This document shows, piece by piece, positions 1,119-38,627 of a stretch of DNA of 38,906 bases. The translations under genes were made by a program, and so were the position numbers. Origin of the DNA: Batkoa obscura. Taxonomy: Eukaryota. A model generated the notes under the pieces. It saw only the letters and a program-made list of their open reading frames with translations, was not told the origin of the DNA and ran no database searches. The stretch's first letter is position 1. Each line of letters opens with the position of its first letter. The stretch spans positions 1 through 38,906 of the forward strand of contig JASVEC010000160.1 in the NCBI GenBank assembly GCA_030770535.1, given 5' to 3'.

Positions 1119-2210
1119 TCAATGAGCCAATTTTAATGAGTTTAAAAAATATCTTTGAATAGGTTGATGGATCAATAAGATAAAACATGACGAGGTAAAC
1201 CCTAAGCATAACACCAAGCAGTTGGAATAAAAAGCAATATGCATAAAGTTCATCTCGGCAAAATTTAATATACCTATTATTAGATCTGGTAATAAACATA
1301 GTATATAGCCTATGACTATTACACTCATTTTTACAACCAGTTTGATTTTTTTAAACTTTAACTGGTCAGCTGTCAATAGATGAGATTCATTTATTTCTAG
1401 TTGAAGCATACTTTCTTGATTTTGTTGCGTTAATGCTAGCCTATTTGATTTCCTATTAATTATGAATTTATATTGTGTGTTATTATCATTCTTACTATTC
1501 AGTTGATAACTATTGAAATAAAAATTAGAGTTTGTAGCAGTAACATTAGACGTAATAATGGGGTTCATTATTTTAAAGTAAGCAAGGGTGATATTTATAT
1601 AACAGAAACATATTGTAACTAAACATATTAAGATTCTCAAAGTGTAAATGCAGCAGTGAAATATAAGATAAGTCATATTGTTTTTTTCAATATTGGCACT
1701 CAATCCACAATAAAAGTTGGCTTCGTACCATGAATATGAATTATAATAACCATGCAGGCTAGATAATACAAGTGATAATATAAATGATAGCACTGATAAT
1801 AGATAATATTTTATTGGTATTGTTCGCTTAAACAAGCAAATTTTACTGTATCTTACAAAACTTAATAACGCAACTAGGTCAATGGAAGTACCAATGGTAG
1901 TAGTTACTATGCTGAGATTTAAAGTACAATACCAAACTGGATCGGATAGTAATAGCTCATTGTTGAAATTTATAACATTATACTCAAGCGCTATTATGTC
2001 AAATATAACATATATGTATAGAATGGTATCAGTGATTGTTATTATTAGTATTAATATTAACTCTAAATTGTTTTTTATAGTCAGTTTAGTTATAATTATA
2101 CTAGTTATCAATAAGTTTATCGATAACGAAACTACTGATATGATTAAATAAGTTATACGTTCTATGTTCATTGTTATAAAGACAATGTTCAATTTTTCTA
2201 TTATCTCCAT
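1119..2210 (-). CDS. Class A (rhodopsin-like) GPCR-like 7TM receptor, minus-cluster paralog 1
   Basis: Intronless 363-aa ORF with seven hydrophobic segments. Motifs: N1.50 (SINL), D2.50 (ITDT), C3.25 (WYC), VRY at the DRY position, ECL2 Cys (FYC), CFCY (Y5.58), CLLPD (CWxP position). By homology with paralogs the likely start is the second Met at 2171 (MNIERITY). Confidence 0.85.
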   Translation of the reverse strand: MEIIEKLNIVFITMNIERITYLIISVVSLSINLLITSIIITKLTIKNNLELILILIITITDTILYIYVIFDIIALEYNVINFNNELLLSDPVWYCTLNLSIVTTTIGTSIDLVALLSFVRYSKICLFKRTIPIKYYLLSVLSFILSLVLSSLHGYYNSYSWYEANFYCGLSANIEKNNMTYLIFHCCIYTLRILICLVTICFCYINITLAYFKIMNPIITSNVTATNSNFYFNSYQLNSKNDNNTQYKFIINRKSNRLALTQQNQESMLQLEINESHLLTADQLKFKKIKLVVKMSVIVIGYILCLLPDLIIGILNFAEMNFMHIAFYSNCLVLCLGFTSSCFILLIHQPIQRYFLNSLKLAH

Positions 2211-2435
2211 TTATCAATGCTTCAACTTAGTCATGCAATTTGAAATTATTATCTAAAAACTAATTAATTCCAGAGAGGGTTTACTGGTAGATTAGTATCG
2301 CATTTTGGCTGATATGCATATATTCCCTTTTATTATGGCTAACAAGACACTTGGGGCTTTCGCATTTCAAAAGGGTAAAATACTAAAAAGTCGATTTGAA
2401 TTAGGAATTATTACTAAAATATTATGATTTTATAT

Positions 2436-2535
2436 GGGGGTGTTTTTTTTTTACTTCATTACTTTTTCCATCTTTTAAGCGTTATTTGAGCGGAAAATTT
2501 GCTAGTAAAACTCTTAAACACAAAAATACATCACC
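2436..2535 (+). mobile_element. MITE copy 1 (~100 bp, GGGG...CCCC TIR family)
   Basis: gggggtgttt...aatacatcacc flanked by ATAT/ATAT. A paralogous empty site is visible at 4821-4840. Confidence 0.85.
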
Positions 2536-2873
2536 ATATCCTTAAATGAGGTAAAAAGCCTTTAAGTGCTTTATTAACATGTAAAGTAAAAAATTAATTA
2601 ACATAAAGAAGAAAGCTCAAAAATGATAGCAAGTTTCTGCCCATACTACACATCATTGCTCGAAGTAAGTTTTACATAAACTTGTTTTCCACGTAACTTT
2701 CATAAAGGAGTATAAAGTTTTACAAAATAATTTTCAAGTGTTATTAAAAAAGTAAGAATAGGTGTTTATTTGGAAATCAAATAAAATGACACCTATTTTT
2801 CTATATAACATGAGTTTGGATAAGAGTTTATTAGCAACATGAAGGCATCGATTGGGTTTTAAAGTCAATATAC

Positions 2874-2968
2874 GAGGATATATTTTTTTGCTTAAGGATC
2901 TTACTAACAATCTTTCCGCTCAAATAGCGTTTAAAAAATAGAAAAAGTAATGAAACTAAAATATCCTC
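2874..2968 (-). mobile_element. MITE copy 2
   Basis: Reverse-orientation match to the family (tttccgctcaaatagcgtttaaaa core). Flanks ATAC/ATAT. Confidence 0.8.
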
Positions 2969-35488: not shown

Positions 35489-36939
35489 GCTATTGTATAT
35501 TAATTTAAAATTTTAGTATTAGAACTTCAGAAAGTTTAATTAATTCAAATATACTATAAATCACAAATAAAATTACACATATCTTCTTGATTTAAAACTT
35601 TGAAATATCTACTCATCATAGCCATTAGTTTTATGTTATATACTATATATATTCCATATAGCTAATTAAAAAGCACTTTTAATCAAATATTCAAAGATAT
35701 ATAATGAGAAGGATATGGTGATATAGAAAAGCGGTAAAGCCTATTTACAACGATGTTGGGCTATAAAAGTAATGCAAGTGTTATTTTGATAAATATTAAC
35801 GTTAAATTTAACCCACATTCTATCAACTATTGTTAATATTCTGTTTACTAATAGAATATATTACCTGAATATGGCAATGTTTGTTGTTAACAGCGTGCTT
35901 TTTTATTACCGTAGAGTGTATTATATTATCCTGATTTTTGAGATAGAGATTAGACAAAATGAATATTTAGTAAATATTCAACAAGTTTAATGTAATTCTA
36001 AATTATTTACTCAAATTTTTTGATTGAAATATGGGATAAGATTCATTCCGAAATTTTTTTATTTAGTGTTCTTGTTCACTTTTAATGCAGTATAAAATTC
36101 AGAAGAAATCAGTTAAATACTAAAACAAAAAGGCATTCATATATAATTGCAATGTTAAAATTAATTCATTAATTATTAATCATTTTAAATTTTCGTATAT
36201 TCTTAAGCATTTAATAATCCCAACAAATAAATAAATAAAAATAAAAACATAATACTACTTATAGAATATAACCCATTATTTTTTATAGTATTGCATCTTC
36301 AGCTGTGGTTATTTTCGTTTCAGTTTAATAATAAATTAGTCATTTCCATATATTTGTTTATTTTCTAGATAAATCTCAAGTGGTAAGGATATAAAATTGT
36401 AATAGAGATAAATTTTTACAGCAAAAATATATTTGTCTTTGAACAAAGTAAACCATTATTCATTCAGATAAGAATTTGGTTTTTTTTAGTATAAAAAATA
36501 ACCATGCATATAGGATTGCCTTATAGTTTATTATATATTAGCCCAGCTATGACTCAAAAGCTATAAGCATGTACTTTAGTAATAACTTAAGTGTATTTAG
36601 ATCCAAAATTGACTCTTGGCTAAACGAAGGTAACAATCCTGAAAGCAACCACATCAGGGTATCTTTAAAGCTGTATTTTAAGCACAATGCCTTAGACTAC
36701 TTGGTCGAGTTTACTTTTTAATTATGAAGATAGGACTTAGATTTCAAAAAAATACTATAGCAAAAAATGGTTAAATCTGTACTTAAATTTTATATCAAAA
36801 ATAATATAATGAATTTTATCTACAAACTAAAGGGCGGAGACTAAAAACATAGCTATAAACTGGATCTATCCACTAATTTATACATACTTTTCTTAACTAG
36901 AGTTTTTATAATTCTATTACATAGAACTTTCAAACATAT

Positions 36940-37037
36940 GGGGGTGTTTTTTTGATTTCCTCACTTTTTCTATCTTTTAAGCACTATTTGAGCGAAAAAT
37001 TCATTAGTAAAATTCTTAAACATAAAAATACATCCTC
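36940..37037 (+). mobile_element. MITE copy 16
   Basis: gggggtgttttttt...aatacatcctc with flanks ATAT/GTAT. Confidence 0.83.
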
Positions 37038-37598
37038 GTATTTTTGTGATAACATAATCATAACAATGATACTTTATAACTATTTTTTGAGGCTGTCAAT
37101 TCATCATAAAAACCATGATCCTTTAGATGGTGTTCTCGTTATACAAATATATAGACTCGTGGATTCTTTAAAGCGCCATATTTCTAGAATAGTAATTGTT
37201 GGTTAAAACAATAACATTGAATATAATATTACATATTTTTAATAAAGTTATGTCGCTGAAACTTTTTATTTTTGTTAAATTCACCAATAAAAAAGTGGCT
37301 CGATAGTACTTAAAAAGAATTGAAAAGAACACTATCTTAAGAAGAGGAATAAGAGGCAGGTGACAAAGCAAAAATATATTATAAACGGACATAATCTATA
37401 GATTATTGCAAAAAAAGGAAGACACTTAATTCAAAGAGGCATATTTAAAATAAGAAAATTAATAGAATAGCATATTTGTGATTTAAATAAAGGGTAATTT
37501 TAAACTTTAATTCATTTTTGATGAATATATAAAGGAAACTTCAGATTTTTTGTTAAACAATTTTTAGATTAATTTATTTTTAACTATTTAATTTAAAA

Positions 37599-38627
37599 AT
37601 GGAGATGCTTAGTGGTCAGATAGCAATGATAATAGCCTCAGTTATTGGGCTAGTTCTAAACTTATTAGTAGGAGCGATTGTCACTATTGGTTTACAATTA
37701 AAAAGTATCGACTTAAAAATGATAGCGATCATTTCACTCACCGATATCATTTTTTATTTTTGGAATATACTAAGGGTTATTCTTAACAGTACAAATTTAG
37801 TACCAATAGCATTTGATATTTTACACCAAACCCCTACCTGGTGGTGCCCGTTAGATTTTGTTATTACTATGACCTGCTTAGGCACGTCAGTGGAATTAGT
37901 TGCAATTCTAGGGCTGATTCGCTATACAAAAATTTGTTGCCAAAAGGAATTACCTTCATACGTCTGGTATGGTCTAGTAGTTTTGTCATTTTCGCTATCG
38001 ATAGCCTTAGCGTTAGGAAATGAATATTATGGGTACTATTTTTGGTCAAGGACTCAAATGTTTTGCTTGGTAGCGATAAATACTAATATAGCAGATGGAT
38101 TGTTAAATTACCAATATTATTTGATTTTTTATTGTTTTTATGCTATTAGAAGTATTATTGCTTTAGTTATTATTGCATTTTGCTATTTCAAAGTTACTAC
38201 TGTCTATCGCCAAGCCCTTAAATCAACAATAACTATTAATTTGAAGAAGAAAACTCAATTATCTGACAGTATAATTAATCAAAATAATGATTCGGAATTC
38301 ATTCCAAGTAAAGATAGCGTAGAAACATTTGAAAGTGAAAGTCCGGAAGAAACTGCAATAATGCATCGCAGCCACAATCTAAAAATAAATCGTAATTTTG
38401 CTACTATTAAAATGATGAGTGCGAGTTTAGCATATATGATTTGCTTGTTACCTGATGTTATCCTTACTATTCTTGATCTTGGTTTTGATTCATACCCTGG
38501 CCCTTCTGTAGCGACTGCTTCTAATGTCTTACTTTGTTTTACAGGAGTAGTGTCTGCTCTCTTTGTCCTCTTATCTCATGCTCCTTCACGAGAATATCTT
38601 GTGAGACATGTTAGATCAATGTTTTAG
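37599..38627 (+). CDS. Class A GPCR-like 7TM receptor, plus-cluster paralog 3
   Basis: 342-aa intronless ORF with GLVLN, SLTD, WWC, SVELVAILGLIRY, MFC, FCY, CLLPD and SALFVLLSH. It shares features with both subfamilies. Confidence 0.88.
   Translation: MEMLSGQIAMIIASVIGLVLNLLVGAIVTIGLQLKSIDLKMIAIISLTDIIFYFWNILRVILNSTNLVPIAFDILHQTPTWWCPLDFVITMTCLGTSVELVAILGLIRYTKICCQKELPSYVWYGLVVLSFSLSIALALGNEYYGYYFWSRTQMFCLVAINTNIADGLLNYQYYLIFYCFYAIRSIIALVIIAFCYFKVTTVYRQALKSTITINLKKKTQLSDSIINQNNDSEFIPSKDSVETFESESPEETAIMHRSHNLKINRNFATIKMMSASLAYMICLLPDVILTILDLGFDSYPGPSVATASNVLLCFTGVVSALFVLLSHAPSREYLVRHVRSMF

Follow-up and report, generated by a model that had tools for sequence, protein, structure and literature searches.

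Single-exon genes for predicted class A receptors form a tandemly expanded, Pfam-invisible branch in an entomophthoralean fungus

Why would a fungus keep nine similar, intronless genes for seven-transmembrane (7TM) proteins within 39 kb, and what kind of receptor do they encode? The question is raised by contig JASVEC010000160.1 of the assembly GCA_030770535.1 (Batkoa obscura), of which we analyzed positions 1 to 38,906, called the window here. A reading of the sequence alone (the sequence-only reading) had described nine intact and three dead paralogs of an animal-type class A G-protein-coupled receptor (GPCR), arranged as a tandem array and lacking introns next to neighbors with 4 and 6 introns. 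The counts and the difference in gene structure are right. The window contains nine intact single-exon open reading frames (ORFs) of 342 to 363 amino acids (aa) that can be aligned from end to end, whereas stop-free frames in 50 shuffled windows reached 159 aa at most, and a DNA profile of the first gene block located three decayed copies. The paralogs are clustered as described, but they do not form one uniform array. They lie in two blocks on opposite strands that flank two intron-bearing housekeeping genes: block A (G1 to G6, minus strand, 1119-20149), with 47 to 59% mutual identity, and block B (G7 to G9, plus strand, 32126-38627), with 34 to 53%; identity between the blocks is 23 to 31%.

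The locus does not represent a new kind of receptor. Its receptor class was already known for its expansion in these fungi, and the window genes are a divergent branch of that class that grew in tandem and is invisible to Pfam. New here are the birth-and-death tandem array, its invisibility to Pfam, the motif losses, and the changes in the predicted pocket of block A.

Results

AlphaFold models of G9 (37599..38627, plus strand; mean predicted local distance difference test score [pLDDT] 70.0) and G3 (5565..6617, minus strand; mean pLDDT 85.2) contain seven long helices, a hairpin in extracellular loop 2 (ECL2), a disordered intracellular loop 3 (ICL3), and helix 8. Among the Foldseek matches listed for the two models, all are class A GPCRs, and so are the best 50 listed by VIA for the G9 model (Z 23.9 to 26.8; root mean square deviation 2.5 to 3.6), at 9 to 18% identity in the structural alignments to animal class A receptors. 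By these predicted structures the window proteins have the class A GPCR fold, as the sequence-only reading had proposed. Sequence profiles also lead to class A. A profile of the nine sequences found galanin receptor 1 as its best match at an E value of only 0.003, whereas a profile of 65 family members matched 715 PDB sequences, again with galanin receptor 1 as the best (E 2.5e-25), and the top 60 of the 715 are class A. The nine proteins have no Pfam match to Ste2, Ste3, Git3, Dicty_CAR, or Pth11, nor to 7tm_4 or the 7TM_GPCR_Sr* serpentine families. The first five were likewise missing from the fold matches that were listed, an absence that by itself would not rule them out. Two weak DUF matches on a loop of G3 fell below the cutoff and were ignored. 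A full HMMER search returned 85 relatives of the window genes, and 58 of 84 scanned homologs matched PF00001 (7tm_1) at E <= 0.001. Within the subfamily to which the window genes belong (defined below), P0008, P0010, and P0011 exceed the curated PF00001 cutoff, and of 17 scanned members only 3 reach PF00001.

Residue positions are numbered from our own alignment, which has 82 rows. N1.50, D2.50, R3.50, Y3.51, Y5.58, Y6.44, and P6.50 are kept in all nine window proteins, and C3.25 (25 residues before R3.50), the ECL2 cysteine, and C6.47 are kept in eight. The class A anchors that had been noted are therefore present at the correct spacing, but every second class A motif is missing: the full D/ERY, W4.50, P5.50, CWxP, and NPxxY patterns, given as class A criteria in the accessible text of PMC12716839, are not found in the window proteins, which carry I, M, or V before RY and have N7.49 in only two of nine cases. 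Y7.53 is missing throughout a fungal-type branch of 67 rows. Nine class A receptors without a name (P0042, P0044, P0049, P0052, P0057, P0059, P0065, P0074, and P0082) form a clade that keeps Y7.53 and lacks the DRY acid; its members mostly have Glu or Asp at 7.43.

C3.25 and the ECL2 cysteine occur together in 78 of the 82 rows and are missing together in the other 4, so that no row has just one of them, and this joint presence or absence is strong indirect evidence for the predicted C3.25-ECL2 disulfide. One of the four rows is G6 (19070..20149, minus strand), an intact ORF with Pro at 3.25, Tyr in place of the ECL2 Cys, and Trp at 5.50, which is either a variant or an early pseudogene. The subfamily has the signature E/D3.41, R5.46, and D6.51; outside it, an acid at 3.41 and a base at 5.46 occur together in 10 of 49 rows, the single cases numbering 5 and 1. 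Block B has R2.60 and D3.28, and of these R2.60 is shared by the seven other subfamily rows in which the column is filled and D3.28 by all. Block A has H at 2.60 in five of six genes and N at 3.28 in five of six. On this alignment, the predicted pocket residues are changed in the six-gene block A.

Where do such genes come from? Our careful tree used 35 of the 82 rows; its bootstrap was unsettled and its branches long, so that its deeper forks are unreliable. Trees left out proteins shorter than 260 aa and the duplicates or fragments P0001, P0003, P0005, P0006, P0012, P0014, P0015, and P0088 to P0091, and P0004 entered as its first unit only. In the 35-row tree, the window genes are united in a subfamily (support 99/99) with six more proteins named for Neoconidiobolus thromboides, one Massospora protein, and two unnamed rows, and the branch of this subfamily is split from NPxxY-bearing rows at 100/99. 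Block A and P0004 group together with support of 100/100, and the stem of this clade is long. A quick tree of all 82 rows concurs; in its entomophthoralean branch all 13 named rows are entomophthoralean, and 45 further rows are unnamed. Exact-sequence lookup of 20 relatives gave species names for 13, of which 12 are entomophthoralean (N. thromboides, Conidiobolus coronatus, Entomophthora muscae, and Massospora cicadina) and one a sponge receptor. At least 15 subfamily members come from N. thromboides or the window, compared to 1 named in Massospora; these counts, from a library clustered at 50% identity, are lower bounds and not genome counts. G9 shares 99% identity with a protein that bears the name of N. 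thromboides, G8 (34442..35488, plus strand) differs by a single residue from P0006, also named for this species, and G7 (32126..33163, plus strand) is identical to an NCBI protein. When eight window proteins were looked up by exact sequence, one was present. Judged by protein identity, the source is therefore N. thromboides, a fungus that infects insects. The G+C content at third codon positions (GC3) of the receptor genes (0.24 to 0.30) is like that of the window. The fungal origin that had been suspected is thus supported by the matches of G8 and G9 and by the tree: the genes descend within the entomophthoralean PF00001-positive branch, they sit with fungal and not with animal proteins, and the term "animal-type" is true of the fold only.

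Flanking DNA indicates how the array grew. With a dispersed repeat masked, flanks of block-A pairs were similar at z > 4 in 5 of 36 upstream comparisons and in 6 of the 28 made downstream, versus 0 of 30 controls. Because flanks are shared, the copies arose as DNA segments, most simply via unequal crossing-over. Retroposition as the source of each copy is disfavored by the same flanks; the ancestral gene may have arisen in this way. The decayed copies and the tandem-duplication flanks bear out the birth-and-death mode put forward earlier. We infer that one old subfamily, shared with Massospora, was expanded by DNA-level tandem duplication in the lineage of the window, and later changes at 2.57, 2.60, and 3.28 suggest a shift of ligand class in block A.

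The masked repeat has 16 copies of 105 to 130 bp between 2431 and 37044, on both strands (e.g., 11694-11822, 23047-23172, and 29412-29545). It has short imperfect terminal inverted repeats, and we take it to resemble a miniature inverted-repeat transposable element (MITE-like). Contigs from other loci carry it too, at loose ends; it is likely to be genome-wide and often transcribed. Its 16 copies could serve as substrates for unequal crossing-over.

A Nei-Gojobori script applied to 15 block-A pairs gave means of 0.323 nonsynonymous (dN) and 1.139 synonymous (dS) substitutions per site and a dN/dS of 0.28 (range 0.21 to 0.39), a ratio that the high dS and AT-rich DNA make approximate. The ratio is 0.24 in the helices and 0.46 in ICL3. 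A value near 1 would have spoken against functional genes in the earlier proposal; at about 0.28, G1 to G6 are under purifying selection. Transcription was assessed by mapping four probable RNA runs from two studies on 28300-38906, i.e., on the G7 to G9 side only. G7 to G9 were covered in all four runs by contigs without skips within the ORFs, the whole of G8 lying on one unspliced contig in runs X1, X2, and X3, while three intergenic bins were empty in all four. Among the 40 differences listed (of 71), 25 lie within the G7 to G9 ORFs and 21 of these are synonymous (p 2e-10 versus site counts). The three genes examined are thus transcribed, as the earlier proposal had required of functional receptors. 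Run X3 skips 158 bases right after the G7 stop (33168-33327) on a divergent contig, and X2 and X3 have nine differences in 76 bases at the G9 5' end (37619-37694); both observations suggest divergent alleles or a close paralog.

The remaining genes of block A, all on the minus strand, are G1 (1119..2210; aligned start Met14 at 2171), G2 (3456..4514), G4 (8093..9148), and G5 (16630..17685). The decayed copies found by the DNA profile lie on the same strand: pseudogene 1 (10650..11642) is nearly full length with stops and frameshifts, pseudogene 2 (12904..15379) is split by an insert at about 13398-15064, and pseudogene 3 (21135..21664) is a frameshifted 5' half. The pieces 15379-15065, 13397-13293, and 13308-12904 of pseudogene 2 correspond to profile positions 5-328, 343-447, and 642-1050; since they are consecutive in the profile, we read them as a single gene split by the insert, which is 1.7 kb long and higher in G+C. 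A 154-aa frame of the insert (14355-14819, minus strand) had no Pfam match and no meaningful PDB match. By eye we took it to resemble the C-terminal part of a non-long-terminal-repeat (non-LTR) reverse transcriptase, a likeness that Pfam and PDB do not support.

Of the two neighbors, the ThiF-domain gene (24682..26331, plus strand) is read from the sequence only, as a 430-aa read-through with 6 GT-AG introns; we presume it to be TCD/TcdA-like. The RRM gene (28136..29116, minus strand), presumably Y14/RBM8A-like, has 4 introns, 3 of which were seen as joints in run X1. It was spliced in two of the four runs, X1 (3 joints) and X3 (1 joint). A tRNA-Asn(GTT) at 30031-30104 (plus strand) and a tRNA-Leu(AAG) at 30459-30541 (minus strand) lie between the RRM gene and block B.

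The public proteins retrieved for block A are fragments only (P0005, P0012, and P0015). P0005 is a truncated form of G3 with 285 aa, and P0012 and P0015 are near-identical to parts of G1 and G5, respectively. P0015 diverges and then ends just past the TM6 proline, and may represent a broken allele or reflect a faulty gene model. P0004, on another contig, is annotated with 466 aa and consists of two partial block-A-type receptors in series; its gene model was likely joined in error across another tandem array. P0009 has the accession that follows that of the match of G9 and a contig of equal length, so that further members of the window array probably lie beyond its right end. Word-index protein searches were insensitive, giving 2, 2, and 5 matches; the last of them, aimed at 20 proteins, put a name to one more, P0053.

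Discussion

What do these proteins do? Going by the predicted fold, we consider it probable, short of confident, that they are cell-surface GPCRs for small polar molecules from a host, from food, or from the fungus itself, and that they would likely signal via a heterotrimeric G protein. The ligand would bind inside the helix bundle, beneath ECL2, because there is nearly no N-terminal domain (only a few residues). The ECL2 hairpin would be tied to TM3 by the predicted disulfide, and D6.51 and N/D7.39 may contact the ligand, together with R2.60 and D3.28 in the older members. An acid at 3.41 and R5.46 likely brace TM3 to TM5, the Y6.44-C6.47-P6.50 hinge would move TM6, and R3.50, Y5.58, and the long ICL3 would engage a G-alpha subunit. 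In animal class A receptors, R3.50, Y5.58, and the proline of TM6 have a central part in engaging the G protein, and the window proteins keep all three. The acidic partner in the DRY motif and the tyrosine of NPxxY are gone; activation would therefore use an abbreviated set of switches.

Several results weigh against this proposal. None of the nine window proteins matched 7tm_1 (PF00001) at E <= 1, so that the check suggested by the sequence-only reading failed for every protein; the array is invisible to Pfam, and Pfam-based counts would miss it. None of the nine has D/E3.49, W4.50, P5.50, W6.48, P7.50, or Y7.53. Covariation of 3.41 and 5.46 ranked first among 348 column pairs and was not significant on phylogenetically independent pairs, of which there were too few. 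The RNA status of the mapped runs rests on spliced joints and gene-limited cover, the RNA label of the tool being a guess. The predicted pocket sites of block A were not more variable than other helix sites (mean pairwise identity 0.56 versus 0.61, p 0.44), and pocket hypervariability was not found in any grouping (p 0.21 to 0.59). This pocket result tells against a strong olfactory-style diversification: the alignment gives no sign of ligand-diversifying selection, and the comparison with olfactory receptors made earlier is not supported in this respect. Finally, the host specialist E. muscae has 99 7tm_1 genes according to the accessible part of a preprint (bioRxiv 10.1101/2023.09.13.557621), a large count that weakens a simple link to host range.

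Could the receptors instead read only signals of the fungus itself, such as mating, density, or spore development, in place of the missing Ste2/Ste3-type receptors? Transcripts of G7 to G9 were present in each of the four runs, galanin receptor 1, the best match by sequence, is a receptor for a peptide, and the accessible text of a recent census counts no class 1, 2, 3, 5, or 14 receptor in N. thromboides (PMC12842992). However, the quick turnover of copies, three of them dead, would suit variable outside cues better, and the top structural matches of G9 include receptors for lipids, amines, nucleotides, and peptides, all within about 3 Z units, and thus point to no ligand. We regard such a role as unlikely. 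We give somewhat less credit to the idea that the proteins are atypical class A members that bind a ligand without coupling to a G protein, as scavengers, decoys, or dimer partners. The atypical chemokine receptors have an altered DRY motif and have lost coupling, and D/E3.49, P5.50, W6.48, P7.50, and Y7.53 are lost in all nine window proteins. Against this stand the invariant R3.50, Y5.58, and P6.50 of the window genes and the fact that Y7.53 is missing across the 67-row branch, the main GPCR class of entomophthoralean fungi.

Block A could also consist of redundant, near-neutral duplicates that arise by unequal crossing-over between dispersed repeats and decay one by one. Three of nine block-A copies are dead, G6 has lost its Cys pair, the window has 16 repeat copies, and the public proteins are fragments only. 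Yet a dS of about 1.1 with a dN/dS of 0.21 to 0.39 in all 15 pairs indicates long retention under constraint, and the paralogs are only 47 to 59% identical, which makes this explanation quite improbable. A function as light receptors is very improbable: the 65-member family profile has opsins among its best matches by sequence, and the E. muscae preprint, in its accessible part, counts 7tm_1 as a light-sensitive domain (bioRxiv 10.1101/2023.09.13.557621), but no row of the 82 has the retinal Lys at 7.43 and none of the nine window proteins has any Lys in TM7, which largely refutes retinal Schiff-base chemistry. That the contig is animal DNA, or the genes a recent acquisition from an animal host, is hardly credible: the fold matches are all animal-type receptors, as expected when no fungal class A structure is among the matches listed, the window-like GC3 also speaks against it, and the matches of G8 and G9 (the latter at 99%), the 99/99 grouping with N. 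thromboides and Massospora, and the transcripts rule out the contamination against which the earlier reading had cautioned.

By descent, the genes fall within a receptor class that is known and has no described function. Fungal class XV (class 15) comprises rhodopsin-family GPCRs defined by a PF00001 match and concentrated in Entomophthoromycotina (Liu, Salamov, and Grigoriev 2025, PMC12842992). According to the accessible text of this census, N. thromboides has 26, C. coronatus 22, and Zoophthora radicans 43 members; class 15 makes up 26 of the 33 GPCRs of N. thromboides, for which no Ste2, Ste3, Git3, cAMP-type, or Pth11 receptor is listed. The surprise expressed earlier at class A receptors in a fungus was overstated, since their expansion in Entomophthoromycotina had already been published. 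The absence of a functional description was correctly stated: a 2026 review lists class XV as without function, ligand, or yeast assay in the text available (PMC13308352). The window genes are homologous to class XV and belong to the same lineage: their profile finds proteins annotated as "family A GPCR-like" in N. thromboides and C. coronatus, and E. muscae and M. cicadina have relatives annotated only as "hypothetical". Unlike class XV, none of the nine window proteins reaches the PF00001 criterion, and their subfamily bears the E/D3.41-R5.46-D6.51 signature. The word "tandem" does not occur in the accessible main text of the census (PMC12842992).

In C. coronatus, 125 PF00001 genes were counted versus 28 in Conidiobolus obscurus, and a role in host recognition was proposed without a test (PMC12387763, accessible text). 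This is lineage-specific growth of the same receptor class, although none of the nameable C. coronatus proteins falls in the window subfamily, and the same text holds no array or pseudogene analysis. N. thromboides is among the six species of widest host range in its subphylum, as far as the accessible part of PMC10386553 states. The 12 rhodopsin-family members described from chytrids and blastoclads (Krishnan et al. 2012, PMC3251606, accessible text) are likewise fungal class A proteins with the TM2 Asp and two loop cysteines, but they retain ERY and NP, whereas the window proteins have I/M/V-RY and no Pro7.50. With galanin, angiotensin, and somatostatin receptors and opsins, the window proteins share the predicted fold, N1.50, D2.50, the C3.25-ECL2 pair, R3.50, Y5.58, P6.50, and helix 8; they differ by the low identity, six absent motif residues, the lack of the retinal lysine, and a separate tree branch. 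Our literature search turned up no account of entomophthoralean class A receptors in an array that is tandem, single-exon, or pseudogene-bearing; most subscription papers lay outside its scope, and supplements may list such genes.

Clusters of vertebrate olfactory receptors and nematode chemoreceptors also combine paralogs with pseudogenes, and the vertebrate genes have single coding exons. The likeness is one of analogy and not of membership: the window has no 7tm_4 or serpentine Pfam match, no excess of pocket variability, and a much smaller scale. More tentatively, and with real doubt, we hypothesize that entomophthoralean fungi, independently of animals, evolved class A receptors encoded by single-exon genes in clusters as a repertoire in the olfactory style. 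Published counts would understate this repertoire, since Pfam does not see its fastest branches and their annotation is poor. Block A would be a young set, retuned to insect cues, that activates a G protein without the DRY acid, W6.48, and NPxxY.

In summary, Pfam missed nine genes in 39 kb where 26 had been counted genome-wide, which suggests that counts based on Pfam underestimate the receptors of these fungi. The locus argues against reading entomophthoralean 7tm_1 genes as photoreceptors. It also offers a compact test set, with two predicted pocket chemistries, a member that naturally lacks the predicted disulfide (G6), dead copies, and a single relative from a fungus specialized on its host. 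For GPCR biology, it provides constrained receptors without most of the canonical activation motifs, and if block A does activate a G protein in their absence, it would be a natural minimal class A switch.

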